Virus record (IMG/VR): IMGVR_UViG_2061766007_000682
DNA: 64,000 nucleotides
From: an uncultured virus (IMG/VR IMGVR_UViG_2061766007_000682)
Taxonomy: Duplodnaviria; Heunggongvirae; Uroviricota; Caudoviricetes
Strand: one strand, 5' to 3'
This document shows positions 4,033 through 63,598 of this stretch, in pieces; position 1 is the first letter of the stretch, and the number at the start of each line of letters is the position of its first letter. The notes under the pieces were generated by a model. It saw only the letters and a list, made by a program, of their open reading frames with translations, made no database searches and was not told the origin of the DNA. The position numbers and the translations under genes are program-made.

Positions 4033-4049
4033 GGAAGGAGGATAATAGT

Positions 4050-4655: not shown

Positions 4656-4670
4656 AAGGAGGGATGCTAA

Positions 4671-5414: not shown

Positions 5415-5427
5415 GGGGTGATATACA

Positions 5428-26917: not shown

Positions 26918-27706
26918 ATGGCTGATACACCAATAAATTCAGATTATATTCAATGTGGTTTCTTTGACGCCGTTGAGACTTCTCCTGGCGTATATGACAG
27001 AATTTACGATGCAGATTCATGGAGTAATCCTTATCGCCGAATTATATCCGACGGTGTATTTGCTTCTCAGGCTGGTTCCGTTAATAGCGATTTTAAAGTA
27101 GAAGCTGTTGATGGTCAATCTAGAAATATTAGAATTACAAAAGGTGATGGTATCTTTTGGTCTAAGTGGCTTAGTTTAACGGCAGACCAGATTATTGANN
27201 NNNNNNNNNNNNNNNNNNNNNNNNNNNNNNNNNNNNNNNNNNNNNNNNNNNNNNNNNNNNNNNNNNNNNNNNNNNNNNNNNNNNNNNNNNNNNNNNNNNN
27301 NNNNNNNNNNNNNNNNNNNNNNNNNNNNNNNNNNNNGTCAACAGAAGACTTGTTTAGACAATGGACCAAATTGTATCAGGATTACTTCGAACAGACAAAA
27401 TCCTCAATAAATGCATTTATGCGCGATTTGACTGAAGATCTTACCGTTGATATGACATTGCAGGAATTAAATAGTGTTATTGAGGTGGCATCCGATACTA
27501 GTACAATTACTATTTCTAACTATGATTCTATAAGCGATGTTATATTTATAGATGTTAACGGGCTTATGTTGAACAGCGATGATTATTCTATTGATGTTAC
27601 GGGAACAACAGTTACATTTACAAACTTGTTACGTACGGGATCTAAAGTTCATGTTAAGATTCTTAAATCAGTAAAGGCTCCTACAGCAGAAGGGAGTGAA
27701 TTCTAA
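26918..27706 (+). CDS. Baseplate/receptor-binding-associated protein
   Basis: GFFD...DR.YDA N-terminus seen in siphophage baseplate proteins; internal gap. Confidence 0.6.
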   Translation: MADTPINSDYIQCGFFDAVETSPGVYDRIYDADSWSNPYRRIISDGVFASQAGSVNSDFKVEAVDGQSRNIRITKGDGIFWSKWLSLTADQIIXXXXXXXXXXXXXXXXXXXXXXXXXXXXXXXXXXXXXXXXXXXXXXXSTEDLFRQWTKLYQDYFEQTKSSINAFMRDLTEDLTVDMTLQELNSVIEVASDTSTITISNYDSISDVIFIDVNGLMLNSDDYSIDVTGTTVTFTNLLRTGSKVHVKILKSVKAPTAEGSEF

Positions 27707-28584
27707 TGTCTGTGAATTACATAATTAATGGTGATACTTTAAAAGATATTGCCGATGCCATTAGAGAGAAAAAAGAAACTTCTGCGCCAATAGATGTGAG
27801 TGATTTTGCTAATGAAATATTAACTATTTCAGGAGGAAGTTCCGTACTAATATCAAAAACGATTACTGAGAATGGCACTTATAATGCATCCGATGATCAC
27901 GCAAATGGATATTCTGATGTGATCGTTAATGTTCCAAGTAGTGGAGCTCAGTATCCTCAAGCAACAAAAACGTTAATCGTAGATAACACATCGTTAACCA
28001 ATACTTTAACTTTCACCGAATCATACACAAATTACGATTTTCTTGAAATGGTAACGTACAATTCTTCCAGTCAAAAGGAAACATCATTTTTGGTTACACC
28101 GTCTATGGTAACAGCATCTTTTACGTATTCTAGCAATCTTATGAATTTTAATGAATTTGATTCAGACCAGTATGTTTGCTATAAAAAGACATCAGATACA
28201 GTATGGACTAGAAACAATTCTAGAAATTTGAATATTAAAACAATTCATGGATTGACGTTAAGTAATGCAACTAAAACGGAAACTGAACTGTATAGTCGTG
28301 AAGCTATTAGTGGATCAAATGTAGCTCTTACTCCTCCTGCAGGTAAAACATTTTATGATTACGATTATATTTTGTTTATGACATGCACTGGTAGTAGCGA
28401 TGAAACACAGCCCTGTAATTCCGTTTTTATGAATCCTGTAAAAGATTGTATGTTTGACACTTTTGTTTCTAAAACCATAAATATCAATAAGTATAATACT
28501 TACCAATCCTCTACTGTAGAAGCTGATAGTATAACTTCATATCGGTATTTCTACGTAGTAGGATTAAATTTCGAATACACTTAA
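27706..28584 (+). CDS. Tail fibre-like protein
   Basis: L.DIADAIREK coiled N-terminus, ITENGTY.A...GYS.V.VNVP module. Confidence 0.65.
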   Translation: MSVNYIINGDTLKDIADAIREKKETSAPIDVSDFANEILTISGGSSVLISKTITENGTYNASDDHANGYSDVIVNVPSSGAQYPQATKTLIVDNTSLTNTLTFTESYTNYDFLEMVTYNSSSQKETSFLVTPSMVTASFTYSSNLMNFNEFDSDQYVCYKKTSDTVWTRNNSRNLNIKTIHGLTLSNATKTETELYSREAISGSNVALTPPAGKTFYDYDYILFMTCTGSSDETQPCNSVFMNPVKDCMFDTFVSKTININKYNTYQSSTVEADSITSYRYFYVVGLNFEYT

Positions 28585-31894: not shown

Positions 31895-32746
31895 ATGATT
31901 TATAAACAGCCTCCTTCTTGGCTTGCTCATCATGGCGTTGAAGGGCAACGTTGGGGTGTTAAACATGGGCCTCCTTATCCGTTAGATGATGATATTAGTA
32001 CTGGAAGTAGATTAAAAATCTCTACAAATAATGATTTTACTGATAAGGATAATTTACGTGTAAAGCATGTTACTCACGTTTATGGTAAACGTAAGGGTCG
32101 TAAAGAAAAGAGCAAGATTTTAAAAGAAAAACAAAGAATAAATGAGAATCAGCAATATTTATATGACAACTATGAAAAAGAAGTAATTGATTATTTAGAT
32201 AAGGCGGATGCTTTTGATAAAAAGTATCGTTCTTTATTTGATGAATATTATGATAATCGAGATAAATACGCCGAAATAGCAGCTAATATAGCTTACGATA
32301 AATGGTCACCTAAATATTCGGATGTTTCTTCTAAAGATTATGACCGAGCTTTTTGGATTTATGGTTATGTAATGGATGATCTTGATCAAGGTAACGATTC
32401 TTCTCAGAGTTTATTTTTTCTTGATAAAAAGAGAAAAAATTATGATAAATTCATGGATCAATACTTGGAAGATAAAGAAATTATGGATGATTCTCGCAGA
32501 AAGCTTTATGATGCTTTGAAAGAAGAACATGGCACTAAACATAAATCTACTAGTACTGTTATAGAGGCTCATGATACATTAGACAAAATTTTAAAAGACA
32601 ACGGTCTTCCAGAAGATTTAGATTATGTAATGTACGAAGCGTATAAAATGGATGATTCAAATTGGAGAAAAGAGCTTTTGGCTGGTATTGACAAATACAA
32701 AGATTCTTCCTTTGATTGGGAACGAATATTAAATGAACAAGAATAA
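31895..32746 (+). CDS. LxH(H/Y)G-tag protein 6
   Basis: WLAHHGVEGQRWGVKHGPPYPL followed by an acidic helical domain. Confidence 0.8.
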   Translation: MIYKQPPSWLAHHGVEGQRWGVKHGPPYPLDDDISTGSRLKISTNNDFTDKDNLRVKHVTHVYGKRKGRKEKSKILKEKQRINENQQYLYDNYEKEVIDYLDKADAFDKKYRSLFDEYYDNRDKYAEIAANIAYDKWSPKYSDVSSKDYDRAFWIYGYVMDDLDQGNDSSQSLFFLDKKRKNYDKFMDQYLEDKEIMDDSRRKLYDALKEEHGTKHKSTSTVIEAHDTLDKILKDNGLPEDLDYVMYEAYKMDDSNWRKELLAGIDKYKDSSFDWERILNEQE

Positions 32747-32758
32747 AGGAGGCCAACA

Positions 32759-33007
32759 ATGACAGACAATCAGAAAAAGTGGTTTAAAGCAGCTGGAATT
32801 CGTGCTCTCAAGACATTCCTGCAGGTAGCTGCCGGTTTCATCACCGTAGGAGCTGCTATCAGCGACATTAAATGGGGAGTGATGTTCTCTACCGCTTTCG
32901 TAGCAGGATTATATTCTCTCATTACAAGTGTAATCACAGGTCTTCCTGAAGCACCGGCAGGATTTAAAGAGGACGAGGATAATAACAATGGACCGACAGA
33001 TACCTAA
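32759..33007 (+). CDS. Holin (r1t-like)
   Basis: W.KAA.IRALKTF.Q, two TM segments, GLPE end. Confidence 0.8.
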   Translation: MTDNQKKWFKAAGIRALKTFLQVAAGFITVGAAISDIKWGVMFSTAFVAGLYSLITSVITGLPEAPAGFKEDEDNNNGPTDT

Positions 33008-33932
33008 TTGGTTAGCTCATCATGGTGTCCAGGGGCAAAAATGGGGGATCAAACATGGTCCTCCATACCCCATCGGTTCGCATCCTAGAAAAGTATTTGT
33101 ATCCGGAACATCTAAATTCAAAGGTAAGTTACCAAAAGAGATAACTAGTAAACTGGATAATTATATTCAGAATAACTACCACATATTAATCGGGGATGCA
33201 CCGGGTATTGATACTGAAGTCCAAAAATATCTGGCGAAGAAAAATCATAGAAATGTTACAATTTATACGATTGAGAACGAACCTAGATTTCAAGCTACGA
33301 ACGATTTAGGTTGGGGAGTTAAGAAAGTCGAGGCTCCTGAATCGGAGATCGTAGACGGGTATAATCCTGCTCAGGTCTATAAGGACAAAGCTATGGCTAA
33401 GGATGCACATATTGGATTGGCAATCCCTATTGAAAACGGTGCTAAAGCTACACGTAAAAATATTGAAAGATTAGAGGGATCCGGCAAGTCGGTAGATGTT
33501 ATCGAACTTGGTACGGACGGGTATAACTCCGAGCAAAAGAACGTTAATTCTTGGGGCAAATCTAAAGACAATAACATATTATATATTTCCGGTAAAGCAG
33601 GAAGTGGAAAATCTTCTAAAGCCTTATCCATGTCTAATAATGTTATACATTTGGATTTCTATTTCGAGCCAGGTTATGAGAAGTATCAGTCTAAGGATTT
33701 CAACAAATATCTTAAACAGCACTTTCCCAATTACAAAGACTTATTAAATAAGGATAAGAACTTTGGAAAGAATCTTGAGAAGTTTGAAAACGTTATTCAA
33801 GATTATGGTAAGTATGCTTTTAACAATGGCGAATCTGTCGTGGTAGAAGGTTTACAGTTACTTGATGGAACTTTATTTCCAGATAGTAATTATTTCAACG
33901 ATAAACCTTATATTTTAATGACAAAAGAATAA
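32988..33932 (+). CDS. LxH(H/Y)G-tag protein 7 with SLOG-like and P-loop kinase-like domains
   Basis: WLAHHGVQGQKWG; VFVSG...IGDAPGID...KD.AM...T..NI (SLOG-like); ISGKAGSGKS Walker A, VVVEG. Confidence 0.75.
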   Translation: MDRQIPNWLAHHGVQGQKWGIKHGPPYPIGSHPRKVFVSGTSKFKGKLPKEITSKLDNYIQNNYHILIGDAPGIDTEVQKYLAKKNHRNVTIYTIENEPRFQATNDLGWGVKKVEAPESEIVDGYNPAQVYKDKAMAKDAHIGLAIPIENGAKATRKNIERLEGSGKSVDVIELGTDGYNSEQKNVNSWGKSKDNNILYISGKAGSGKSSKALSMSNNVIHLDFYFEPGYEKYQSKDFNKYLKQHFPNYKDLLNKDKNFGKNLEKFENVIQDYGKYAFNNGESVVVEGLQLLDGTLFPDSNYFNDKPYILMTKE

Positions 33933-33968
33933 AGGCATCGGATGAAAATCTGGTGTCTTTATTTTTTT
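33931..33968 (+). terminator. Terminator at end of the late region
   Basis: AAAGGCATCGGAT / ATCTGGTGTCTTT stem plus T-run. Confidence 0.8.
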
Positions 33969-33996
33969 CGCGTGGAAAACTGATGGTATTATAGAA
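33967..33996 (+). promoter_or_regulatory. TTCGCR-N17-TATRRAA element (first of the array)
   Basis: Same motif at 34201, 34416, 34773, 35353, 35623, 36063, 36672, 37382, 37564, 37902; gap-truncated at 35057 and 35738. Confidence 0.85.
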
Positions 33997-34019
33997 GAAC
34001 AATAATTGGAGGTGATCTT

Positions 34020-34181
34020 ATGACAAAATTAGAGAGATTGATGATCAGACTTGAAGGGATAGCTAAAAATACAGCTTTCTCTGAGAGATCAGGAATCAGC
34101 TATGATAAAGAAGGAACAAAGGAAGAACTGGAAAACATTATTGGAAAAATCTACGAAGAACTGGATAAGGTAGCGGAGTAA
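34020..34181 (+). CDS. Cassette microprotein (53 aa, helical), ends KVAE
   Basis: RBS GGAGGTGAT; stop codon lies in the loop of the downstream hairpin. Confidence 0.75.
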   Translation: MTKLERLMIRLEGIAKNTAFSERSGISYDKEGTKEELENIIGKIYEELDKVAE

Positions 34182-34242
34182 TATCTGCTCCTTATCTTTT
34201 TTCGCATTATATTCTAACCTTAATATGAAAGGAGGTGATAAC

Positions 34243-34398
34243 ATGAGAACATGCTCGAATTGCAAGTATTCTAAGGTGAATCACGAAGCAGATACTTTTT
34301 ACTGTAAAGTACACTGCGACGATACACCTAAGGAATACGGGGAGAACATGTACTGCGATTATCACGTGTTTAAACCAAGAAGAGAAGGCGCAGAGTAA
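34243..34398 (+). CDS. Cassette microprotein (51 aa, Cys/His-rich), ends EGAE
   Basis: RBS AAAGGAGGTGAT; C..C.Y...C...C..H pattern. Confidence 0.75.
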   Translation: MRTCSNCKYSKVNHEADTFYCKVHCDDTPKEYGENMYCDYHVFKPRREGAE

Positions 34399-34455
34399 TC
34401 TGCCCTTCTTATTTTTTCGCATTATATTCTGTCTCCTATATAGGAGGTGATAAGT

Positions 34456-34731
34456 ATGAACGAATTTGAAAATAAAGTAATAAATGGTATATTTGTTTCA
34501 CAATATGTAGCCGCATGGGTTAAAGAGTGTGGTGGATGTGAATATCATTACATCAAAAAAGATGGAAAGATAGAACGTGTTTGGCCGTTTAGAAAATGGT
34601 TAGAACAGCTTCTTATCAATGGAAGACATCTTACCGATGATGAGGTGAGATTCATAACCAACTTTGCAACTAACGGCAAATTGGAGTTGGAGGCAAATGC
34701 ACGACATTTTAATTCAGAAACAGAACCTTAA
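34456..34731 (+). CDS. Cassette protein, copy 1 of a duplicated gene
   Basis: FENK.INGI..SQYVAAW...NGKLELE; paralogue at 36347. Confidence 0.85.
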   Translation: MNEFENKVINGIFVSQYVAAWVKECGGCEYHYIKKDGKIERVWPFRKWLEQLLINGRHLTDDEVRFITNFATNGKLELEANARHFNSETEP

Positions 34732-34734
34732 GAT

Positions 34735-34774
34735 TAAGGAGGTTACGGACGAAAGTCCGGCCTCTTTATTTTTT
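34735..34774 (+). terminator. Type B hairpin GGAC-GAAA-GTCC
   Basis: Near-identical copy at 36635-36673; related hairpin at 54480. Confidence 0.8.
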
Positions 34775-34822
34775 CGCGCCAACTCCCGGGATCTATATAG
34801 AACATATAAGGAGGATAAAACT

Positions 34823-35017
34823 ATGAAAAAGGTTTATATTGTTACTTACAACAGAGTCGATGCTAAGGGCGTCGTAATCCTGAATGAGATTTGGCATGTT
34901 TCGTCAAGTCTTGGAAGAGCTAAGTGCTGGTGTTGGGATCACCGGCATGTAGAATATATCAACAAGAACGAGAGCGCCAAACTCATCATTGAGGAAGTCG
35001 AAGTCGACGATGAGTGA
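34823..35017 (+). CDS. Cassette microprotein (64 aa)
   Basis: RBS AAGGAGG; MKKVYIV...SS...A...IEEVEVD small phage beta-alpha-beta pattern. Confidence 0.75.
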   Translation: MKKVYIVTYNRVDAKGVVILNEIWHVSSSLGRAKCWCWDHRHVEYINKNESAKLIIEEVEVDDE

Positions 35018-35022
35018 GAGCA

Positions 35023-35058
35023 ATAAGGACGCAGAGTAATCTGCTCCTTATATTTTTT
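35023..35058 (+). terminator. Type A hairpin TAAGGA-C-GCAGA-GTAA-TCTGC-TCCTTA
   Basis: Identical core at 36247, 36861 and 37532; variants at 34165 and 34384. Confidence 0.85.
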
Positions 35059-35112
35059 CGCNNNNNNNNNNNNNNNNNNNNNTATAAAAATAATTTTTAG
35101 GAGGAAACAACT

Positions 35113-35274
35113 ATGAAAAACGAAATGGAAATGAAAAAGGATATGGTAACTCGGCTTAACAAGACCATTGAGGGACTGGAGAACCAGAAACTCAATGCGA
35201 AAAATGCTGAGGAATGGCAATTCCTTGACAAATTGGAACGTAGTTTTCAGGAAGAACTAGATGCAGTAACATAA
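35113..35274 (+). CDS. Cassette microprotein (53 aa, coiled)
   Basis: RBS AGGAGG; MKNEMEMKKDMVTRL...DAVT. Confidence 0.7.
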   Translation: MKNEMEMKKDMVTRLNKTIEGLENQKLNAKNAEEWQFLDKLERSFQEELDAVT

Positions 35275-35402
35275 AGGAATTATTATTCAATGATACGGAG
35301 CGTTAACAGCGCTCTTTATCTTTTTCGTTTACAAATCTATCTATTATATTTTTTCGCGCCAAAAACACACCTCCATATAGAACAACAAAGGAGGACAAAA
35401 CT

Positions 35403-35579
35403 ATGAAAAGAGCAATGTTAATTAAGTTGGTAGTTGGATGTATCATTCTTACATCTGGTTGTGGAGGAGACAAAACTGAAACAACTAAGAAGAAAGAAGA
35501 TAGACTTCCAAATGCCACTTATTGGGAAGATGTCTTGGTAGAAGAAACCTTAGTTGAAGAAACAATTATCGGGTGGTGA
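35403..35579 (+). CDS. Cassette lipoprotein-like microprotein (58 aa)
   Basis: MKR, hydrophobic stretch, lipobox-like LTSG-C; stop TGA lies inside the downstream hairpin. Confidence 0.7.
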   Translation: MKRAMLIKLVVGCIILTSGCGGDKTETTKKKEDRLPNATYWEDVLVEETLVEETIIGW

Positions 35580-35604
35580 AATATCCACCCTTTAATTTTT
35601 TTTT
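35571..35604 (+). terminator. Type C hairpin GGGTGG-TGAAATAT-CCACCC
   Basis: Identical copy at 37354-37383. Confidence 0.8.
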
Positions 35605-35649
35605 GCCGACAAACCTGGCACGGACGCGTTATATTCTGCTACTAATATG

Positions 35650-35730
35650 AAAGGATAATATTAGCTCAGTAGGGAGAGCACCGATCTAACAAATTGGAGG
35701 TCCTGGGTTCGATCCCCAGATTTATCCTTT
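35650..35730 (+). tRNA. tRNA-like RNA, anticodon AAC (Val), atypical acceptor stem
   Basis: D arm GCTC/GAGC, anticodon stem CCGAT/ATTGG with loop CTAACAA, T arm CTGGG-TTCGATC-CCCAG; acceptor stem extended and bulged, no CCA. Confidence 0.75.
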
Positions 35731-35794
35731 ATATTTTTTCGCGTAGAAAACGGTTCTNNNNNNNNNNNNNNNNNNNNNNNNNNNNNNNNNNATT

Positions 35795-36009
35795 ATGGGT
35801 TTTATTAACAAAATTTGGAATACAAAGTGTATGAGATGCGACGAAGAATTTCCTAAAACTCAGGCGCATTCTGTAGTAGTAGATACTAAACAGTATCTGC
35901 TATGCAAGAAATGTGCTTGGGATGTGGAAGTCCTGTTGCATTGTTCGCCACTTCCAAAATTCGGAGATGAAGGCGACATGAAAGTCATTCCATCAGAGAA
36001 TTCAAAAGA
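35795..36009 (+). CDS. Cassette zinc-finger-like protein (3' end in gap)
   Basis: CMRC...LCKKC. Confidence 0.6.
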
Positions 36010-36106
36010 NNNNNNNNNNNNNNAAATTAGAGATCGGACAAAAGTCTGGTCTTCTAATTTTTTTCGCATTATATTCTGTTATCAATATGAAAGGATGGTG
36101 ATAAAA

Positions 36107-36262
36107 ATGTTATGGTTGTTATTAGCATTTATAGTATGCCTTATACTCAGTATATCGAGTGAATATACATTCTTTATTGTATTGGGTATTGGTATAGGGT
36201 TGCTTATAGACTACATACCATTTGCAATAGCAATACTTTTGGAACGTAAGGACGCAGAGTAA
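36107..36262 (+). CDS. Cassette membrane microprotein (51 aa, 2 TM), ends KDAE
   Basis: RBS AAAGGATGGTGAT; hydrophobic; stop in hairpin loop. Confidence 0.75.
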   Translation: MLWLLLAFIVCLILSISSEYTFFIVLGIGIGLLIDYIPFAIAILLERKDAE

Positions 36263-36346
36263 TCTGCTCCTTATTTTTTTTTTTTTTNNNNNNNNNNNNN
36301 NNNNNNNNNNNNNNNNNNNNNNNNNNNNNNNNNNNNGGAATGTAAA

Positions 36347-36631
36347 ATGGACGAATTTGAGAACAAAGTTATAAATGGAATATTTACCTCACAGTATGTA
36401 GCCGCGTGGGTTAAAGAGCGTGGTGAATGCGGATATCATTACATCAAGAAAGATGGAAAGATAGAGCGTGTTTGGCCGTTTAAAAAATGGTTAGAACAGC
36501 TTCTTATCAATGGAAGGCATCTTACTGATGATGAAGTCCGATTCATTACGAACTTTGCCACTAACGGTAAACTAGAACTGCAGGCAAATGCACAACATTT
36601 TAGTTTTAATGACGAAATGGTAGAACCTTAG
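36347..36631 (+). CDS. Cassette protein, copy 2 of a duplicated gene
   Basis: Highly similar to 34456-34731. Confidence 0.85.
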   Translation: MDEFENKVINGIFTSQYVAAWVKERGECGYHYIKKDGKIERVWPFKKWLEQLLINGRHLTDDEVRFITNFATNGKLELQANAQHFSFNDEMVEP

Positions 36632-36715
36632 GGTTAAGGAGGTACGGATGAAAGTCCGGCCTCTTTATTTTTTCGCATCAGAATCATATCTCTATATGAA
36701 AGGATGGTGATTTAC

Positions 36716-36877
36716 ATGCTTATGTTTATTGGACTAATTGTACTGGTTTCAAAGTTATGTATAGCCCTTAACATACAAACAGAATATGTGATAGGGATTA
36801 TATGGGGGCTTGGAATCATGGAAGCTATAAACATGCATAGACTTGTTTTATACATGAAGTATAAGGACGCAGAGTAA
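36716..36877 (+). CDS. Cassette membrane microprotein (53 aa, 2 TM), ends KDAE
   Basis: RBS AAAGGATGGTGAT; MLMFIGLIVLV...YKDAE. Confidence 0.75.
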   Translation: MLMFIGLIVLVSKLCIALNIQTEYVIGIIWGLGIMEAINMHRLVLYMKYKDAE

Positions 36878-37187
36878 TCTGCTCCTTATTTTTTTTTTTT
36901 TNNNNNNNNNNNNNNNNNNNNNNNNNNNNNNNNNNNNNNNNNNNNNNNNNNNNNTAAACTGTAAACATCGTGATGAGTGTTGCTATAGAGGAGGCTATAG
37001 TGATCATAATTCATGGATGAGTTTACATGGCGGTATGAACCCGTATTCTGATCGTTGNNNNNNNNNNNNNNNNNNNNNNNNNNNNNNNNNNNNNNNNNNN
37101 NNNNNNNNNNNNNNNNNNNNNNNNNNNNNNNNNNNNNNNNNNNNNNNNNNNNNNNNNNNNNNNNNNNNNNNNNNNNNNNNNNNNNNN

Positions 37188-37346
37188 AAAAGGTTGTGGC
37201 TTACAGGTGTCATCATTCCCGTAGCAGGGATGTGTGTGACATTGTATGCTCACGTGCCGGAAGTACGAAGGGCTGTCAACGATATGCCTCACAATATCAA
37301 GAAGAGGGTGGCTCATCTTAAGAACCGCTTTCACAGAAAGGAGTGA
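37188..37346 (+). CDS. Cassette protein, 3' part (start in gap)
   Basis: Hydrophobic segment then basic tail; followed by type C hairpin. Confidence 0.5.
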   Translation, partial: KRLWLTGVIIPVAGMCVTLYAHVPEVRRAVNDMPHNIKKRVAHLKNRFHRKE

Positions 37347-37425
37347 AGTATCTGGGTGGTGAAATATCCACCCTTTAATTTTTCGCATTATATTCTGTCC
37401 TTTAGATGAAAGGATGGTGATTTAT

Positions 37426-37545
37426 ATGACTGGAATGAGAGATAGTATGAATGACTGTGATTTGAAAAGTAGTTACGAATGCTATTCTGGAATGAGAGAT
37501 AGTATGAATGATGACGACATTAAAGAATGTGAGGACGCAGAGTAA
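37426..37545 (+). CDS. Cassette microprotein (39 aa) with internal duplication, ends EDAE
   Basis: RBS AAAGGATGGTGAT; GMRDSMND occurs twice. Confidence 0.65.
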   Translation: MTGMRDSMNDCDLKSSYECYSGMRDSMNDDDIKECEDAE

Positions 37546-37630
37546 TCTGCTCCTTATATTTTTTTCGCGTCAGAATCGTACCTCTATATAGAACTGTAAG
37601 ATCTATATAACTTTTAAGGAGGAACTTATT

Positions 37631-37848
37631 ATGGCAAGTTTTAAAGAATCTTTTAAAAACGGTATGGCGAAGCAGGGCGGAGAAATGGCAGCAAGCGTTG
37701 TCCTTTCAGCAGCANNNNNNNNNNNNNNNNNNNNNNNNNNNNNNNNNNNNNNNNNNNNNNNNNNNNNNGAACTGATGAAACAACGCCGACACAGGAATCG
37801 GTAGAACTTCCAAAAGAGATCAAAGAAGAACAGACAAAAGAGCCGTGA
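37631..37848 (+). CDS. Cassette protein, paralogue of 37971-38195 (central gap)
   Basis: Shared leader and C-terminal ELPKE..KEE..KEP. Confidence 0.65.
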
Positions 37849-37970
37849 GACTCTATAAACTTCACATGAANNNNNNNNNNAGTCTCCTAATCTTTTTTAA
37901 ATTCGCGTGAAAAACGTATCTCTATATAGAACTGTAAGATCTATATACAAAAATTTAGGAGGAACTTATT

Positions 37971-38195
37971 ATGGCAAAAGTAACAGAAGACATGAAGAAC
38001 TTTGCAGCTTATGGCGTAGCTGCTGGACTTGCACTTGGCCTGACGGTTGGAGTGACCCACTTGGTCGCAAAAGCTGGAAGCGCTATTGCAAACAAGCACA
38101 CTGCTAAAAAGGCGGCAAAACTGGAAGAAAAGAAGAAGCCCGTAGTAACGGAGCTTCCAAAAGAAGTAGTAAAGGAAGAACAGAAAGAGCCGTGA
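37971..38195 (+). CDS. Cassette single-TM protein with charged tail
   Basis: RBS AGGAGG; Ala/Gly-rich hydrophobic helix. Confidence 0.75.
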   Translation: MAKVTEDMKNFAAYGVAAGLALGLTVGVTHLVAKAGSAIANKHTAKKAAKLEEKKKPVVTELPKEVVKEEQKEP

Positions 38196-38215
38196 GACTC
38201 TCAATTTCTCACAGG

Positions 38216-38256
38216 AAAGGAGATTGGATGAAAAATCTGATCTCCTGATCTTTTTT
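38216..38256 (+). terminator. Type D hairpin AGGAGATT.GA / TC...TCTCCT
   Basis: Related hairpins at 42641 and 45539, partial at 37881. Confidence 0.75.
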
Positions 38257-38285
38257 GCCTAATTATATTTAAGGAGGTGATTGAT

Positions 38286-38396
38286 ATGGCAGATTGTAAA
38301 TCTTGTAGGCATCATACGATATGCAATATTATATTTAAAAGTAAAAAGAATCCTTTTTGTAAGCAGGAGGTAAACAACCATGTCACATACAGTTAA
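38286..38396 (+). CDS. Small Cys-rich protein (36 aa)
   Basis: RBS AAGGAGGTGAT; CKSC....C....C. Confidence 0.5.
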   Translation: MADCKSCRHHTICNIIFKSKKNPFCKQEVNNHVTYS

Positions 38397-38558
38397 TACA
38401 GCAGTAGCAAAAAGATGCATATGTGGAAGCATTCCTGTAGTAAAACCTGCTTCAAATGAAGGCGTCGCATGTATAGTAGAATGCATGTTTTGCGACGTGG
38501 ATAGTGTAATCGGATCTAATAGGCATAACGCAATTCAGGTATGGAATGAAATGATAGA
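38380..38558 (+). CDS. Lar-like zinc-ribbon protein (3' end in gap)
   Basis: CICG..P...C..C...AI..WN. Confidence 0.55.
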
Positions 38559-38717
38559 NNNNNNNNNNNNNNNNNNNNNNNNACGCAAAGTATTTAGCAC
38601 CAAATCTGTTCAACACTTATGATGATTGGTATAATAATTATGTCAAAGATTTAGGTAAAGAGCCAGACGAGTCATTAGTTGAAGAGGCAAAGTTATATTT
38701 TAAGGAGGATAAGTAAA

Positions 38718-39056
38718 ATGGGATACAGACCATACATTTATATCAAAGAAGAAGGATGGCCGTCCGGCATAGAATTATCAAAGTTCTACGGATATGTGGA
38801 TCATAAAGAATGTAAATCGATTACCTGGCTGTTAGATCATGAAAAAATAGAAGACCCTTATACATTTTATGCAGGTGAAGGTCCATATATCGAATTCACA
38901 GCTGAAGAATTCAGAGAGTGGTTTGAATTATATTGGTCCGATATAGCCGCATACAGAGAGATACACAACATGGAACAATATGATCCATATGATGAATATC
39001 CGGAGTTAAAAGACATTTACGATGATGATAGATCAAAGATGGTAGAATGGGGGTAA
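38718..39056 (+). CDS. Hypothetical protein
   Basis: RBS AAGGAGG, tightly packed ORF. Confidence 0.7.
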   Translation: MGYRPYIYIKEEGWPSGIELSKFYGYVDHKECKSITWLLDHEKIEDPYTFYAGEGPYIEFTAEEFREWFELYWSDIAAYREIHNMEQYDPYDEYPELKDIYDDDRSKMVEWG

Positions 39057-39062
39057 TAACAT

Positions 39063-39737
39063 ATGAAAAAAGATGATATTCTTGTTACGTACGGACCAGA
39101 AGGTGGAGACTGTACACGACCGTATTATATTCGTTTGAACAGACAAGACATTACAGTGCAAGAGTTTATTGATTTTATCCTAAAAGAAGCATCCGGTGAA
39201 TGGGGAACTATAGACGTAAGAGATGTAGATAAAATGACACCCGATAAGAAATATACGGTCGAATACTCTCATGGCGAAATTAAATCACAAGTCGGAGATC
39301 CGGATTGGCTATCGGCAACAATAACTAAGATGCGCGGACAAGGAGGCTGGTCATGTAGTGACTTTATGCTAACGGTAAAACCTGCGGCATCGGAAACCAA
39401 AGAGCCAAATGATCCACCCACAATTCCAAAGCAAAAGGTTCTTGTTGTATGTCGAACGGAACATCGCCCTGTGGATTATATTTCATCACAGAAACTTGCT
39501 AGTAATACTGAGATTCATATAACAAGTAAGATTTATAAGGATTACACTACTGTAATAGGTGTATGCGAATACCATGGAGATGAAAAAGAGGCTCTATCAA
39601 TTAAGATGATAAAAGACGATAAAGAGTACCTCATTTCAAAGCATGGCAGTAAATGTGTGAATGATCCTGAATATTGTTATCGTAACAAGAAATTATATTT
39701 TGAGTATTCGGTTAGTATGATGGAGGTGAAGAAATAA
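39063..39737 (+). CDS. Hypothetical protein
   Basis: 224 aa ORF in operon. Confidence 0.7.
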   Translation: MKKDDILVTYGPEGGDCTRPYYIRLNRQDITVQEFIDFILKEASGEWGTIDVRDVDKMTPDKKYTVEYSHGEIKSQVGDPDWLSATITKMRGQGGWSCSDFMLTVKPAASETKEPNDPPTIPKQKVLVVCRTEHRPVDYISSQKLASNTEIHITSKIYKDYTTVIGVCEYHGDEKEALSIKMIKDDKEYLISKHGSKCVNDPEYCYRNKKLYFEYSVSMMEVKK

Positions 39738-40087
39738 TGGAACGTGAAACGTGTCCGCAATGTGGTGCTGCAATAACGGAAGAAAAGTGTCCTTATTGCG
39801 GAACTTTATTCTACGACTTCGCGTGCATAGATTTAAAAGAACCGTTTTGGATAAAAATTAAAGATGGTAATAACATAAGACGAATGAAGGTACGTTTGCA
39901 AGGAGCTCAATATACGGTTGGCTGTCCGGATACTAGTATAGCATATTGTGATAATGAGCCTATATACATGATGACCAGTCCTGCTACGCACGAGTTTAAC
40001 ATGTCGTTTATTGTGTTACCAGATGATGGCATTCTTGCTAAAATAGTAGATACGGACGTGATAGACAAAGATACAAAAGCGTGGTGA
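39737..40087 (+). CDS. Zinc-ribbon protein
   Basis: CPQCGA...CPYCG; TAATG coupling. Confidence 0.75.
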   Translation: MERETCPQCGAAITEEKCPYCGTLFYDFACIDLKEPFWIKIKDGNNIRRMKVRLQGAQYTVGCPDTSIAYCDNEPIYMMTSPATHEFNMSFIVLPDDGILAKIVDTDVIDKDTKAW

Positions 40088-40097
40088 GGAGGATAAC

Positions 40098-40249
40098 ATG
40101 TTACAAGTAAAATGTGATGTTTGCGGCAAAGTTTTAGATATGAACGATCATAACACAATATTTTTTAAAGCAAGATTTCAACAAGTATACCATTTTCGGT
40201 TTTCCGGAGAAAATGCAACTTCTTTATCCGATTATGGTATTAAAGACAA
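40098..40249 (+). CDS. Zinc-finger-like protein (3' end in gap)
   Basis: RBS GAGGAGG; KCDVCGK. Confidence 0.55.
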
Positions 40250-40554
40250 NNNNNNNNNNNNNNNNNNNNNNNNNNNNNNNNNNNNNNNNNNNNNNNNNNN
40301 NNNNNNNNNNNNNNNNNNNNNNNNNNNNNNNNNNNNNNNNNNNNNNGAAAAAAATATTGTTTTAATAGTGCAGATGGAACTACTAAATGTATTAAAGGAA
40401 GATGCCCGTTCGTTGATATCCGTAGCTGTAGTTGTGCATTAGGTTTATTTATGAATAGACATATTAAAGAACCAGAATCTGATTACCCATTCGATCCTAA
40501 TGTCCCTGAAATGGGACAGTTGTAATTATATATTTGTAAAGGAGAATAATTAAC

Positions 40555-40948
40555 ATGAGAAAGAAAACATATTATATTTGTTTAGTTCTTGTACTTATTA
40601 GTATTTTTGCTGTCGGTTGTGAACAGTCAGATAAGGTAAGATACAATTTGAAGAAACAGGCTGACAATTTTAATCTGGTCAGACGAATCACAGTTATCAA
40701 CTGTATAAAAGGTGATACTATATTTCAAATGACTGGAAAAATGTCTATTGAAGTAGACGAAAGTGAAAATCAGTTGGAAGTAACTGTGGAGGATGGTGGA
40801 TCATNNNNNNNNNNNNNNNNNNNNNNATGTTACTTATGTGATAGAGGATCTGAATCTTGGTGCAAATGAAGTGAGCAATTACAAATACACATTGGTGTAT
40901 AACCCAGAGATGTGGATTCCTGTGGATGGACCTGAGTATGTTGAATGA
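40555..40948 (+). CDS. Phage lipoprotein
   Basis: Signal peptide with AVG-C lipobox; ADNFN..RRITVIN; frame joined across gap to TGA at 40948. Confidence 0.7.
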
Positions 40949-41196
40949 TGTAATTTTGTTAGTTATACTTATTGTAGTTTTACTTGCTTTGTATCGTGAA
41001 GGATTAAGTAAGTTATAAAATATTGAAAGAAGGTGATGAAAAGTGAGTGAGGCAGTTTGGATACACAAAGGACTGTATGGAAATGGAACCGCATTTGCAC
41101 CTTTTATGGATTTATATGAGTGTTCTAATTGCAAGGCTCTTTCTGTTGTACTTTTTGATGAATGCCCGGAATGTCATTTGAATATGAAGAAAGAAG

Positions 41197-41562
41197 GTGA
41201 AGAGAATGGAACTTGATAGAAGATTTGACAAAATGTACTTTGATGCAGAAAAAAAGAAAGCTTTGGAATCTGATTTAGAATCCAATAACGAATCGATGAT
41301 ACAAAAAATGGTAGAGAGTTTGGTTAAAGCAGAAGAGGAACTTAAGTATATAGAGCTTCGGAATAAAGGAATCATATCTGACGTTGTGCTTGTCATGAAT
41401 CCAGGACATAAAGGAGTTATTGAACAGGCATTATATTCTGCAGGTATAAAAAAGATTCCTATCATTTATGTTGATTATGTAGAGCTTGATAAAGCATACG
41501 CGATTACAGATAAGCACTTAGTTGAAAATATTAAGAATAATCTGTCTTGGGAAGAATGGTGA
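41197..41562 (+). CDS. Hypothetical protein
   Basis: 121 aa ORF in operon; start uncertain. Confidence 0.65.
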   Translation: MKRMELDRRFDKMYFDAEKKKALESDLESNNESMIQKMVESLVKAEEELKYIELRNKGIISDVVLVMNPGHKGVIEQALYSAGIKKIPIIYVDYVELDKAYAITDKHLVENIKNNLSWEEW

Positions 41563-41568
41563 AGAGAA

Positions 41569-41799
41569 ATGAGTAGAGAATATTTTCTTGAGGACCCACT
41601 TCACCCTAATGGCGGTATTACCATAAAGTGCAGAGACGAACATGATTGTGTTTTCTGTGAGCATTGTACAGATGTATTTTGGGATTATACAAGTCTCATT
41701 TACATGATTTTTTGCAATGAAGATCATGACCCTTGGACCAGACCATGTAAACAGTTTAAAGAACGAAGTGTAAAGGACGGTGAAAAAGATGAAACATAA
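41569..41799 (+). CDS. Cys-rich hypothetical protein
   Basis: CVFCEHC...C...C..F. Confidence 0.65.
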   Translation: MSREYFLEDPLHPNGGITIKCRDEHDCVFCEHCTDVFWDYTSLIYMIFCNEDHDPWTRPCKQFKERSVKDGEKDET

Positions 41800-42136
41800 C
41801 ATTTGCCCTAATTGCGGTGCTGCTATGATACTTAATGGTTATAGATGGCATTGCGATTATTGTGGTACAGAAGTCGATGACATGGGACAAATAATTGTAC
41901 GTGTCGAGAATCCAAAAATTAAGGTCGCTGCTTCGAAGGTTGCCGTCGATAGAATGATACTTGAATTATACCCTGAAGAAGTAGAAAAGCATGCTAAAAT
42001 GGAAACATGTAGGCAATTAGCTGAGTTTCTATTCGAGAATGATCTCGTGGATTTTGAGGAAACATTCGATCCTGTATTAGCTCAACAAGTATATTTAGGC
42101 AAATTCAGATACGTAGACAAAGGAGTAAAACTATGA
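41789..42136 (+). CDS. Zinc-ribbon protein
   Basis: CPNCGA...CDYCG. Confidence 0.75.
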   Translation: MKHNICPNCGAAMILNGYRWHCDYCGTEVDDMGQIIVRVENPKIKVAASKVAVDRMILELYPEEVEKHAKMETCRQLAEFLFENDLVDFEETFDPVLAQQVYLGKFRYVDKGVKL

Positions 42137-42360
42137 ACATCGCTATACTAATTATATCCATTCTCATTCTGCTTGGTTCCATATTTTCATTTCTTATGTT
42201 CACTGTATTGTACTACGATCTGTACAAACGGACACAAGACATAACCAAACAACTGCAAATTATATTTAAGCAGAATGGTAACATGTTTAAAAAAGTAGAG
42301 TACATCGAAGATCAACTGATACAGAAGGAGGCTGAAAGATTGTCAGTTGATAAAAAATAA
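42133..42360 (+). CDS. Single-TM protein
   Basis: N-terminal hydrophobic helix, RBS AAAGGAG. Confidence 0.65.
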   Translation: MNIAILIISILILLGSIFSFLMFTVLYYDLYKRTQDITKQLQIIFKQNGNMFKKVEYIEDQLIQKEAERLSVDKK

Positions 42361-42373
42361 TCCGCTAATCGAA

Positions 42374-42403
42374 TTCGCGCGAAAATATGGTCCTCTTATA
42401 GAT
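42374..42403 (+). promoter_or_regulatory. TTCGCG-N17-TATAGAT element
   Basis: Same spacing as array elements; heads a solitary cassette. Confidence 0.75.
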
Positions 42404-42429
42404 AACGATATTAAAAGGAGGATGAATTT

Positions 42430-42618
42430 ATGAGAGATAGTTGGATTCGTAAGATCATCGTTGGAATAGCTGTGCTATTATCTATGATATTGGTTGCTAC
42501 AGGAGTAGCCTGGTGGATTGCCGGGGCTCTCTGGTCGACCTTTATTTGGGTATTAGTGGCCGCTGTACCCACGATCTTGGTAATCAAACTCATCAGAAAG
42601 ATTGCGAAATCTGCTTGA
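42430..42618 (+). CDS. Two-TM membrane protein (solitary cassette)
   Basis: RBS AAAGGAGG; followed by type D hairpin 42641-42679. Confidence 0.7.
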   Translation: MRDSWIRKIIVGIAVLLSMILVATGVAWWIAGALWSTFIWVLVAAVPTILVIKLIRKIAKSA

Positions 42619-42681
42619 TGAAGTTATCTACCAAAACAAAAAGGAGATTGGAATTATATTCTAGTCTCCTGATCTTTTTGA

Positions 42682-42861
42682 GTTTTAGAAGCCTTAGTGA
42701 GGTGGCCGGTTTTGCCGTAATTNNNNNNNNNNNNNNNNTGGTTTGTTGTTCTCCAGTAAGTATCTGTGGTGCCTGAACGATACTTACACTAAAAGACGTA
42801 TTATATTTCCACGTCTATAAAAAAAGATTTCGACCGGCCATCTCATTAAGGTTTCTAAGAC
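42682..42861 (+). ncRNA. Putative structured ncRNA, copy B (~180 nt)
   Basis: 42682-42710 pairs with 42833-42861 (29 of 29 pairs, 4 G-U); internal hairpins GTAAGTATC/GATACTTAC and AGACGT/ACGTCT. Confidence 0.7.
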
Positions 42862-44988: not shown

Positions 44989-45219
44989 ATGGACAATCCT
45001 GAGATCGTGAAGGCTGTGCCATGTCATTCATGCGGTAAACAGCCTCACACATTTAAATACAGAGACACCGATGATGGTGAACAACGATTTGAGATTTGGT
45101 GTGCTACGATGAATTGTGGAGAGCCAATTGCTATCAAGACCAAGGTTAGCATGCGTGAAGCAATTATATTGTGGAATAAGGCGCAGGCGGAGAAATCGCA
45201 CGAGAATCTACCGTCTTAA
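44989..45219 (+). CDS. Lar-like zinc-ribbon protein
   Basis: PCHSCG..P...C....C...EAI..WN. Confidence 0.6.
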   Translation: MDNPEIVKAVPCHSCGKQPHTFKYRDTDDGEQRFEIWCATMNCGEPIAIKTKVSMREAIILWNKAQAEKSHENLPS

Positions 45220-45224
45220 TAGAA
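45195..45224 (+). promoter_or_regulatory. ATCGCA-N17-AATAGAA element
   Basis: Variant of the array motif upstream of 45258. Confidence 0.6.
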
Positions 45225-45257
45225 CTATATTAGTGTATTTAAAGGAGGAATGTAAAA

Positions 45258-45530
45258 ATGGCAAACGATTTTAGTTTTGATGAGCAACAGGCATTAGAAG
45301 AACAGAAGCATCGCAATAAGATGAAAGAAATTCTTTTGCAGAATAGATGCGACAAGAATCTGGAAACGATGAAAGCTGATAATCAGCAGAAGCTCGAAGA
45401 GCAGAAAGCTAAGACAGCTAAGAAGATCNNNNNNNNNNNNNNNNNNNNNNNNNNNNNNNNNNNNNNNNNNNNNNNNNNNNNNNNNNNNNNNNNNAAGAAA
45501 TGTACCTCGGGAGAAATGAAAACTAAATAG
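45258..45530 (+). CDS. Coiled-coil hypothetical protein (solitary cassette, gap)
   Basis: RBS AAAGGAGG; followed by type D hairpin 45539-45576. Confidence 0.65.
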   Translation: MANDFSFDEQQALEEQKHRNKMKEILLQNRCDKNLETMKADNQQKLEEQKAKTAKKIXXXXXXXXXXXXXXXXXXXXXXKKCTSGEMKTK

Positions 45531-45602
45531 TATCTAAAAGGAGATTAGAATTATATTCTGGTCTCCTGATCTTTTTGAATTTTTATTAAAGGAGATGATT
45601 TT

Positions 45603-54089: not shown

Positions 54090-54119
54090 GACGCGCGAAA
54101 ATCTATTGATATTATAGAA
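54090..54119 (+). promoter_or_regulatory. GACGCG-N17-TATAGAA element
   Basis: Same spacing as array elements. Confidence 0.7.
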
Positions 54120-57449: not shown

Positions 57450-57652
57450 AAATTCAATTTAAAAATGTCAAATTTTGTTGATATTTAGGCCGTTTACGGG
57501 CTTAATTTGTTGACAAACCTGGCACGAACGGCGAAAAAATGTCAAATTTTAAGTCAAAATATGTCAAAAATCTTTGATATTTTTGATAAAATTGTTGAAA
57601 AAACATGAAAAATTCATCAAAATTTGCACAAAATTGCACAAAACTGTTTTTA
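57450..57652. other. Putative replication origin region
   Basis: Non-coding, AT-rich, repeated (AT)GTCAAA and TTGA(C/T)A elements, upstream of the helicase-primase. Confidence 0.5.
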
Positions 57653-59738: not shown

Positions 59739-59775
59739 NNNNNNNNNNNNNNNNNNNNNNNNNGCGGTTGACAAA

Positions 59776-61863: not shown

Positions 61864-61892
61864 AACATTTAAAATTTTAGGAGGATTTAAAA

Positions 61893-62366
61893 ATGAAAAT
61901 TAAGGTAATGAGACCCGCAAATGGTGGAAGAGATGTTTATGTTATTCAGAATGCTCAGCTTAAGTATAAGAACTTTAGTGGCAAGCAGGGCAAGTTCCCA
62001 GGATCTAGATCGGTCAACGTTCTTGTTGATGCTGAGGATAAGGCAATGATGGAAGCAAAGGGTCTCAGAGTTAATGAGAGAACTAATCCGCATACAAACG
62101 AAGTTGAGTATACAATTAGAATTAATGTTAAGATGCTTCCTGGCAACTCTCCGAAGATCACTCAGAGAACTGGTAANNNNNNNNNNNNNNNNGAAGTAAC
62201 TGTAGAAGCTCTCGACAGTGTTTCCATCAGCAAGGCAGATGTTGCCTGGACTTACGGTTTTGGAACAGGAAATCCCGTTGCTTACCTTAAGGAAATGAAT
62301 GTGGTTATTGTTCCTTCCATCTTTGCACCGGATGCGAATGATTATTACATGGAGACCCATGATTGA
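61893..62366 (+). CDS. Putative single-stranded DNA-binding protein
   Basis: NA....KNFSG...R, LD...I..AD, AYLK.M; position in replication module. Confidence 0.6.
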   Translation: MKIKVMRPANGGRDVYVIQNAQLKYKNFSGKQGKFPGSRSVNVLVDAEDKAMMEAKGLRVNERTNPHTNEVEYTIRINVKMLPGNSPKITQRTGXXXXXXEVTVEALDSVSISKADVAWTYGFGTGNPVAYLKEMNVVIVPSIFAPDANDYYMETHD

Positions 62367-63577
62367 TTCACTTAGATGATTATCAGTTAGATGCGATTAA
62401 AAGGCTAAGGACTGGCTCCATTCTTTGTGGTGGAGTCGGTTCTGGCAAATCGCGAACTGCATTAGCATACTATTATATTCAGCAAGGAGGGTCTTTGGAT
62501 CCTTACTCTCCTATGGATTTTTATACGGCTAAGGATTTATACATAATAACTACGGCAAGAAAACGTGATACTTATGAATGGGAAGATGAAACAATTCCAT
62601 TTCTGCTAAACAAGGAAGACGATAAACACCGTAATTATATTTGTAACTACTATGTTGATTCTTGGAACAACATTAAAAAATATGCAAACGTTAAAGATTC
62701 ATTTTTCATCTTTGATGAACAGAGAGTAGTTGGATATGGTGCATGGACTCAAGCATTTTTAAAAATAGCAAAGAACAATGCATGGATTTTATTAAGTGCT
62801 ACACCTGGCGATTGCTGGTCAGATTATATTCCAGTGTTTGTTGCAAATGGCTTTTATAAAAATAAAACTGAGTTTACAAAAGAGCATATCATTTACAAGC
62901 CATTTAGGTCTTATCCTATAATTGATCGATATGTTAATACTAGGAAGCTTGATTATTTTAAAAGTAAAATTTTAATAGACATGGATTACAAAAGTCCAGC
63001 AACAGAAATTTATATAGATGTTCCTGTTTCATATGATAGAGATAAATACATNNNNNNNNNNNNNNNNNNNNNNNNNNNNNNNNNNNNNNNNNNNNNNNNT
63101 ATTGTAAATGCTAGCGAATATTGTAGTATACTTAGAAAGATTATTAATAGCGATAAATCAAGATCCGATGAAGTTATTAGATTATGCGAAAGACATAAAA
63201 AGGTAATTATATTTTATAACTTTGATTATGAACTCGAGATATTGCAAAATTTATTAACTGTGCATAAGATACCATTTTCCGAATGGAATGGTCATAAGCA
63301 TGAACCAATTTTGAAATCAGATCATTGGGTTTACTTGATACAGTATTCTGCTGGGTCTGAAGGTTGGAACTGCATAGAGACAAATGTAATTATATTCTAT
63401 TCACAGACTTATTCATATAAGCAAATGATTCAGTCAGCTGGAAGAATTAATCGAAGGAATACACCTTTCAAAGAATTATATTTGTATCGATTTAAATCTA
63501 AAGCAGGAATTGATAAGGCAATAACTCGAGCTTTGAACAACAAAGAAGATTTTAATGCCAGAAAGTTCTTCGCGTAG
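62363..63577 (+). CDS. SF2 (SNF2-like) helicase
   Basis: GVGSGKS, FDEQ, LSATPG, EG.N, Q..GR..R. Confidence 0.9.
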   Translation: MIHLDDYQLDAIKRLRTGSILCGGVGSGKSRTALAYYYIQQGGSLDPYSPMDFYTAKDLYIITTARKRDTYEWEDETIPFLLNKEDDKHRNYICNYYVDSWNNIKKYANVKDSFFIFDEQRVVGYGAWTQAFLKIAKNNAWILLSATPGDCWSDYIPVFVANGFYKNKTEFTKEHIIYKPFRSYPIIDRYVNTRKLDYFKSKILIDMDYKSPATEIYIDVPVSYDRDKYXXXXXXXXXXXXXXXXXIVNASEYCSILRKIINSDKSRSDEVIRLCERHKKVIIFYNFDYELEILQNLLTVHKIPFSEWNGHKHEPILKSDHWVYLIQYSAGSEGWNCIETNVIIFYSQTYSYKQMIQSAGRINRRNTPFKELYLYRFKSKAGIDKAITRALNNKEDFNARKFFA

Positions 63578-63598
63578 AAATCTAACTATATTATAGAA
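63569..63598 (+). promoter_or_regulatory. TTCGCG-N17-TATAGAA element
   Basis: Overlaps helicase stop; same spacing as array elements. Confidence 0.75.

Follow-up and report, generated by a model that had tools for sequence, protein, structure and literature searches.

The DNA analyzed here is a 64,000-nucleotide stretch (the window) of IMG/VR record IMGVR_UViG_2061766007_000682, from an uncultured tailed virus of the Caudoviricetes. Between positions 33931 and 38256 it carries a tandem array of 16 small units, in agreement with the count of about 16 consecutive units in a first-pass annotation made from the letters alone. The best explanation of the array, with a probability of about 0.62 when taken together with the shuffling and the phage polymerase described below, is a hyperplastic early region built from monocistronic units, each composed of a promoter, a small open reading frame (ORF) or tRNA-like RNA, and an intrinsic terminator.

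The units are spaced ~115–385 bp apart (estimates where runs of N intervene), and their heads carry the motif CGC[AG]-N17-xAT[AG][AG]. The motif is fully visible 11 times on the plus strand of the array and never on the minus strand, against a chance expectation of 0.28 on average and 3 at most in 500 first-order Markov simulations. Its spacing is fixed at 17, with no copies at spacings of 13–16 or 18–21. Two further copies are partly hidden by N and three unit heads lie inside N-runs, seven of which mask these five heads wholly or partly. Terminator-like hairpins number 23 in 33000–39000 versus 2.8 ± 1.8 in shuffled sequences, and six junction hairpins folded singly give z-scores of −3.2 to −5.3. 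The reused junction families are those already described (type A six times, B twice, C twice, and D-like three times), joined by an additional reused hairpin, E, which closes units 15 and 16. At five of the six type A junctions in the window, the TAA in the hairpin loop is the stop codon of the upstream ORF, as it is for both ORFs (2/2) at type A junctions of L207, the one metagenome relative found, so that the final codons of otherwise unrelated genes are supplied by the repeat. The earlier description of a motif abutting the T-run of the preceding unit has two exceptions: unit 7 has a gap between motif and T-run, and the motif of unit 16 is preceded by just two T.

Seven N-runs, several of them directly after T-runs, and the absence of a contig spanning the array are what would be expected if order and repetition were partly an assembly artefact of a mixed population. 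This is extremely improbable, since run X1, which probably represents the source sample, has overlapping contigs that repeat 32000–35055 and 35090–36276 with almost no letter changed, and both the N-free L207 and the cultured phage Oengus have the same design.

Strains very likely differ by whole units that have been gained, lost, duplicated, or moved, with the changes falling at the junctions, as judged by comparing window 32000–40000 with contigs of four metagenome runs (X1, X3, X4, and X6, out of 20 matching), with L207, and with pairs of related phages. Parts of the array lacking contig cover in X3, X4, and X6 were not scored as absent. In L207 the endolysin, the holin, and the protein upstream of the array are 98–99% identical to those of the window, and DNA identity of 94.5% passes the first terminator and CGC before stopping in the first unit. 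L207 has eight motif-headed units with the A, B, and D junctions of the window (A 97.8% identical over 45 bases, B 97.7% over 43 bases), and its cargo is mostly different despite the kept junctions: two of its eight ORFs are matched in the window by blastp (51% and 48%), and a third resembles unit 8 by eye only. The 51% homologue of the unit 1 ORF sits in unit 2 of L207, and the 48% homologue of the unit 6 ORF stands under a different promoter and terminator.

In another strain, an X3 contig (4088 bp, depth 13, with 217 bases on its short side) fuses 33964 to 34197, so that exactly unit 1 is lost at the T-run, between two terminators of different families. An X6 contig traverses the junctions in another order, and units 7–8 are common to the window and run X4 with 3 differences in ~300 bases. 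Of the 34 ends of 17 contig joints, 32 fall in junction zones, which make up 38% of the array; the 17 were chosen from 22 listed, leaving out three outside the array, one across an N gap, and one inside a diverged gene. Among close relative pairs, 8 of 12 have homology-block ends inside arrays, and in these 8 pairs 17 of 26 ends lie within 45 bases of a motif versus 6.6 expected. The joint and block-end counts lose some of their force because they are partly circular (unrelated cargo cannot align) and because the pairs share events and are not independent. The difference between the relatives L128 and L134 is a 343-bp unit flanked by a duplicated terminator. With gain, loss, and reordering at junctions seen in L207, X3, X6, and the relative pairs, the modular, shuffleable character proposed in the first-pass annotation is upheld. 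Searches with exact junction patterns returned only isolated matches without arrays in viral contigs (5 loci; 18 loci) and no match in genome contigs, and the unit 3 protein as query found no locus.

The two halves of a junction assort independently. In the 19 junctions compared, taken from the window and L207, resemblance between terminators does not carry over to the promoters that come after them (Mantel r −0.02, p 0.58); a type A terminator precedes at least three promoter types and type B four. This places exchange in the 9–14 bases that the halves share, the T-run/CGC seam, and since some indels are bounded by longer duplicated terminators, longer repeats serve too. Exchange would proceed by homologous or microhomology-driven recombination, probably single-strand annealing, at the 25–45-bp reused terminators and promoters as well as at the 9–14-bp seam. 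The annealing-type protein encoded at 61893..62366 is a candidate recombination factor. Short-homology recombination thus appears to be the simplest reading, in line with the earlier proposal of recombination between junction repeats, and shuffling is likely to involve no site-specific recombinase.

An integron-like system, with a site-specific recombinase acting at the T-run/CGC core, would account for crossovers that map to a 9–14-base core and for the tyrosine integrase gene lying divergent beside the array in Oengus and in relative G004. It is nevertheless very improbable. The first-pass annotation had seen no integrase in the window, and none is found by PHROG among its 65 ORFs or between the upstream gene and the array in L207; the Oengus integrase as tblastn query has no match in either. 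All six whole IMG/VR relatives have motif clusters and five have no integrase match, G004 being the sole exception, and the Oengus enzyme lies at the record end, seemingly as a prophage integrase would. Cores of attC type (RYYYAAC...GTTRRRY) occur in the array as 2 and 1 isolated copies, all within cargo and none paired at a junction, and the indels bounded by longer duplicated terminators also speak against a fixed core. Integrons are defined by tandem single-gene units, the integrase IntI, and attI/attC sites. The array shares with them tandem single-gene units of variable content; unlike them it has no IntI, no attI/attC, a promoter and terminator in each unit, and no evidence of ordered insertion from one end. 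The integron analogy of the first-pass annotation therefore gives way to a closer one with elements of T4-type phages. Two observations belong beside these. The temperate relatives L025 (146–1387) and G004 (27104–28312) carry their tyrosine integrase divergent and right before the array, which mimics an integron layout. A phrog_478 ‘RDF’ label at 40555 was considered as a sign of site-specific recombination and rejected; the protein starts with a signal-peptide-like stretch.

The closer analogy is to the promoter-early stem-loop (PeSL) elements of T4-type phages. As described in PMC2839356 and PMC4122927, these are repeated terminator-promoter elements between the ORFans of a hyperplastic region. 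The elements mark the ends of indels and replacements, stop codons lie at their 5′ edge, and no integrase takes part, all as in the array. PeSL promoters match the sigma70 consensus and work with host polymerase, whereas the array motif is non-canonical at the sequence level; PeSL hairpins are often within the promoter, whereas in the array terminator and promoter abut at the T-run and reassort independently. The same sources demonstrate mini-circles for PeSLs (PMC2839356, PMC4122927); in the contigs analyzed here, backward joints are found in which mini-circles and reordered arrays look alike. By its sequence, the array works like a PeSL array that departs from sigma70, and is not an integron.

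The motif at the unit heads appears to be a genome-wide, phage-specific promoter-like signal. The earlier idea of a promoter-like element per cassette stands for the unit heads but not as a property of the array, because the motif recurs in the window at 42376 and 45197, where it starts further complete motif-ORF-terminator units, and at 54092 and 63571. A matrix from 44 strict motif sites (positions numbered with the first C as 0) has 116 matches on the coding strand versus 6 on the opposite strand across the 10 sequences scanned. Nearly all fall in the stretch from the lysis genes to the polymerase operon, with exceptions that include window 15828 and 8630 in relative G005. The motif lies directly before the operon of VRR nuclease, exonuclease, and RNA polymerase in six of eight relatives; in G005 it lies between exonuclease and polymerase, and phage ReqiPoco6 likewise carries it before the polymerase operon. 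It is present in phages of Firmicutes and Actinobacteria hosts, including the cluster AU phage CapnMurica (matrix).

Transcription would start near motif position 24, the first purine after xAT, to judge from what lies immediately downstream. Ten of 11 motif-headed tRNA-like genes begin at positions 25–28, and their 11-bp acceptor stem, with compensatory changes, extends back to positions 24–25 (10 aligned, one near-duplicate left out). Among 441 distinct motif sites, a Shine-Dalgarno call is made in 331, and 73 of the 331 cores begin at 24–28. A sigmaA −10 element at 18–23 would start RNA at 29–31 and so cut the tRNA-like stems and the 73 Shine-Dalgarno cores; stems and Shine-Dalgarno sites that begin inside the last hexamer argue against it. 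The A at −11 of a sigmaA −10 element is near-invariant. The equivalent position is A in 204 of the 441 motif sites and in 6 of 15 window sites, the internal C is conserved in 84% of sites, and a sigma70 scan, a sequence-level test, finds no excess (21 vs 18.5).

The motif is probably read by a phage polymerase. In the proposed mechanism the reader would be a one-chain RNA polymerase of the YonO type, encoded by the phage itself and probably packaged in its virions, and this enzyme would also transcribe the replication genes and its own operon from the motif; each unit would thereby be expressed wherever it lands. Of 33 records with motif-rich loci, 20 are 90% complete or better, and every one of these encodes the polymerase; in cultured phages, capsid and polymerase also give the same genus tallies for the nine genus labels that they share. 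Single-motif loci are a weak control, with the polymerase also in 6 of 10 near-complete records and 9 of 39 loci not searchable. The protein has the DFDGD motif and a C-terminal helix-turn-helix (HTH) with a weak match to sigma region 4; no solved structure related to it by sequence was found. Lactococcus phage 1706 has a 43%-identical homologue, orf75, to which GenBank gives the label structural protein. The structural-protein labels of 1706 reportedly come from virion mass spectrometry. If the polymerase is injected with the virion, this would explain why the motif heads the polymerase’s own gene. SPbeta YonO and the 1706 polymerase are both one-chain, two-barrel enzymes with DFDGD, and 1706 is named as one of the YonO-like families (PMC5467207, PMC2919709). 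YonO serves one late operon, whereas the candidate promoter here is early and present in many copies, and the 1706 enzyme bears a virion-protein annotation. The YonO paper leaves the sequence of the YonO promoter undetermined (PMC5467207).

Several points weigh against a phage polymerase as the reader. Co-occurrence of motif and polymerase is largely shared ancestry. The virion label of orf75 is a GenBank annotation only. The polymerase gene would lie beyond the window, which ends at the VRR nuclease, and is presumed present in this genome. The matrix was trained on some of the scanned genomes, the search pattern itself demands purines at positions 24–25, and G002 has no matrix match ahead of its polymerase operon. 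Other points favor the rival in which the units are true PeSLs, with the motif acting as an early promoter for host sigmaA/sigma70 (a weak −35 in TTCGCR, a −10 at 18–23) and the phage polymerase acting only late, as in SPbeta. Late genes lack the motif while the polymerase operon is itself headed by it, and YonO transcribes late genes in SPbeta (PMC5467207). TA stands at 18–19 in 172 of 441 sites, a perfect TATAAT occurs among the G002 and CapnMurica sites, and in some sites a well-formed TATAAT or TGnTATTAT lies one helical turn farther upstream, as TGnTATTAT does at window 33969 and 54092. The Vardy and Conley papers (PMC9671010, PMC10868162) read TATAAT and sigma70 in the cluster DJ motif. 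This rival is unlikely all the same, given the scarcity of the −11 A, the stems and Shine-Dalgarno cores that its start would cut, the rigid spacing of 17, the flat sigma70 scan, and a motif that spans phages of Firmicutes and Actinobacteria.

Alternatively, host polymerase could act with a phage activator or an alternative sigma-like factor, as at middle promoters. A 360-amino-acid (aa) multi-HTH protein at 46821–47903 is a candidate regulator, and the conserved CGC and internal C could form a protein-binding site. Such a factor is distinctly improbable, more so than a sigma70 promoter: no sigma factor family is found among the 65 ORFs, a −10 at the standard distance from a start at position 24 does not fit the geometry, and it is for the polymerase, not for an activator, that constancy across the group is shown.

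A bolder composite goes further than reading of the motif by the phage polymerase. In it, a virion polymerase with a private promoter starting inside xATRR would make host-independent cassettes, exchanged between Firmicutes and Actinobacteria phages by annealing at a ~10-base seam, an integrase-free counterpart of the integron, and one recurrent cargo, a tRNA-shaped RNA whose anticodon loop is scrambled, would serve as a decoy and not as a decoder; taken jointly, this is doubtful. In the open-access literature, subscription papers being outside the search, no paper was found on a promoter for a 1706-type polymerase or on tRNA-like units, and PMC12859696 and a Rhodococcus preprint hold no passage on the motif.

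Seven late-region proteins (window 3445–6186, 30889, 31895, and 32988) start with a DUF7211-like HHG/HYG tag on unrelated bodies; the DUF7211 matches are mostly below the curated cut-off, and the family is named in no paper turned up by the literature search. The idea that the polymerase bears this tag as a packaging signal was rejected, as a hidden Markov model of the seven tagged proteins matched no polymerase N-terminus and the HYG likeness is by eye only. A short ATTATATTT stretch stands just before the ribosome-binding sites of motif-less genes (window 38261, 42862, and 54140; L207 12755) and is possibly a second promoter or translation signal.

The cargo is mostly unrelated from unit to unit, as the first-pass annotation held, except for two paralogous pairs, units 3 and 10 (87% identical) and units 9 and 11 (31%). 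That annotation had also ascribed probable early host-takeover, anti-defence, or exclusion functions to it. These find no support: scans of 12 cargo proteins against Pfam, PHROG, and PADLOC gave no convincing family, and the unit 3 model has no significant fold match, which leaves anti-defence or takeover as a guess from genome position. Units 3 and 10 encode an uncharacterised family of 135 clusters; the unit 3 model has a predicted local distance difference test (pLDDT) score of 92, and Pfam (100 members), a sequence search of the PDB, the Atlas (0.84 at best), and three fold searches (Z 3.9 at best) yield nothing for the family.

The tRNA-like cargo of unit 7 is confirmed by an Rfam match to the tRNA family RF00005 (47.7 bits; gathering threshold 29). 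The RNA folds as a cloverleaf with D- and T-arm consensus, a bulged acceptor stem extended back into the motif, A at position 34, and no encoded CCA. It could be processed to a working tRNA-Val, and GTT is the commonest Val codon in the late genes (176 of 355). ARAGORN finds 14 genes in 35 loci, 10 of them motif-headed, or 11 including that of the window. None of the 11 encodes CCA and all are followed by a T-run; 8 of the 10 in relatives (several close kin) lack a readable anticodon, and three of the four tRNA genes not under the motif end in CCA. The motif-headed RNAs look like a recurring tRNA-derived small-RNA cargo, for which a decoy role is speculation. Another possible structured RNA is a ~29-bp stem with compensatory changes around 100–140 variable bases, present in three copies (window 258–430 and 42683–42860; L207 12435–12575) without an Rfam match. 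In L207 and in an X6 contig it comes right behind the final unit of the array, and in the window it stands ahead of the first late genes.

Table 1. Units of the array and related features of the window.
Feature	Position	Strand	Description
Type D terminator and T-run	33933..33968	+	closes upstream 314-aa gene; left array boundary; fold z −4.15; identical in L207
Unit 1	33969..34202	+	motif 33969–33995; 53-aa helical ORF 34020–34181; type A variant terminator incl. stop codon
Unit 2	34203..34417	+	motif; 51-aa Cys-rich ORF 34243–34398; type A variant terminator incl. stop codon
Unit 3	34418..34774	+	motif; 91-aa ORF 34456–34731; type B terminator 34739–34764
Unit 4	34775..35058	+	motif; 64-aa ORF 34823–35017; type A terminator 35025–35046
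Unit 5	35059..35354	+	motif partly N; 53-aa coiled-coil-like ORF 35113–35274; single-copy hairpin 35297–35314
Unit 6	35355..35624	+	motif; 58-aa lipoprotein-like ORF 35403–35579; type C terminator 35571–35590 incl. stop codon
Unit 7	35625..35739	+	motif; tRNA-like RNA, anticodon AAC, then T-run
Unit 8	35740..36064	+	motif partly N; two-CxxC ORF from 35795; type D terminator 36030–36053
Unit 9	36065..36287	+	motif; 51-aa ORF with two transmembrane (TM) segments 36107–36262; type A terminator incl. stop codon
Unit 10	36288..36673	+	head in N-run; 94-aa unit 3 paralogue 36347–36631; type B terminator
Unit 11	36674..36901	+	motif; 53-aa two-TM ORF 36716–36877; type A terminator incl. stop codon
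Units 12 and 13 (presumed boundary between them)	36902..37383	+	heads N-hidden; Cys-rich ORF fragment ~36957–37057; TM-bearing ORF end 37191–37346; type C terminator 37354–37373
Unit 14	37384..37565	+	motif; 39-aa internally repeated ORF 37426–37545; type A terminator incl. stop codon
Unit 15	37566..37903	+	motif; TM/charged-tail ORF 37631–37848 (N-interrupted); hairpin E incl. stop codon; terminator partly hidden
Unit 16	37904..38256	+	motif; 74-aa TM/charged-tail ORF 37971–38195; hairpin E; type D terminator 38218–38246
Outlying unit (probably true last array unit)	42376..42680	+	motif; 62-aa hydrophobic ORF 42430–42618; type D terminator 42644–42668
Outlying unit	45197..45570	+	motif; 90-aa ORF 45258–45530; type D terminator 45541–45565
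Motif at head of operon leading to primase-polymerase	54092..54118	+	
Putative single-strand annealing / single-stranded DNA-binding protein	61893..62366	+	phrog_4787 E 2.9e-14; PF24083 E 1.7e-6
Motif at head of VRR-nuclease gene	63571..63597	+	operon in relatives goes on with exonuclease and RNA polymerase

Between the array and the first outlying unit lies a 4.1-kb block of motif-free small genes (38258–42370), bounded by two type D terminators and absent from L207, which may itself be a large inserted unit. All large genes of the window are on the plus strand. In the PHROG scan of the 65 ORFs, the order runs from terminase, portal, a capsid-protease fusion, and two major tail proteins through tail and lysis genes to small unknowns. 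Genes for a primase-polymerase fusion, an annealing protein, and a helicase come next, and the right edge is occupied by a VRR nuclease. The primase-polymerase, a single 1300-aa gene in relatives, is split at N-runs into three ORFs in the window (57574–61903), and assembly gaps are the most likely cause. The tape measure gene (13519–21576, 2685 codons) is unusually long for this genome size.

By gene content, the window phage is a siphophage of the group of Lactococcus phage 1706, Oengus, and actinophage clusters AM, AU, AW, BI, CC, DJ, and EL, of which we take AW to be a part. It shows the capsid-protease fusion, duplicated major tail protein, primase-polymerase fusion, and one-stranded genes of that group, whose cluster links are drawn in PMC7302621 and PMC5513430. 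The capsid protein matches 244 phage records, with ~46–51% identity among the matches listed, which include phages of Arthrobacter, Gordonia, Streptomyces, Lactococcus, Microbacterium, Rhodococcus, and Faecalibacterium. The metagenome runs that best match the window are labelled bovine gut metagenome, and the host is presumably a member of the Firmicutes.

The design of the array is already known from related phages. A 32-bp boundary repeat of Arthrobacter cluster AU (Giantsbane, 10.1101/2020.01.10.891226) occurs in the same phage group and position after the tail genes, and a 50/43-bp motif of the cluster DJ phages Vardy and Conley (PMC9671010, PMC10868162) in the same group and genome position. 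These reports share with the array small membrane-rich genes and deletions and translocations at the repeats; they describe 5–6 copies, a sigma70 reading or none, and no link to a phage polymerase, whereas the present array comprises 16 units, uses several families of terminator, and includes a unit whose cargo is RNA. New here are the exact loss of a unit at strain level, the independent assortment of junction halves, and start-site mapping from tRNA-like stems.

The results extend PeSL-type shuffling to phages well removed from T4, and the array offers functional screens a ready stock of accessory microgenes and tRNA-like RNAs, each expressed on its own. If the motif is read by the phage polymerase, it would provide a concrete promoter and start site for a one-chain RNA polymerase family whose promoter the YonO paper left open, in phages of which hundreds of harmless members are in culture, and the compact polymerase-promoter pair could serve as an orthogonal expression tool.

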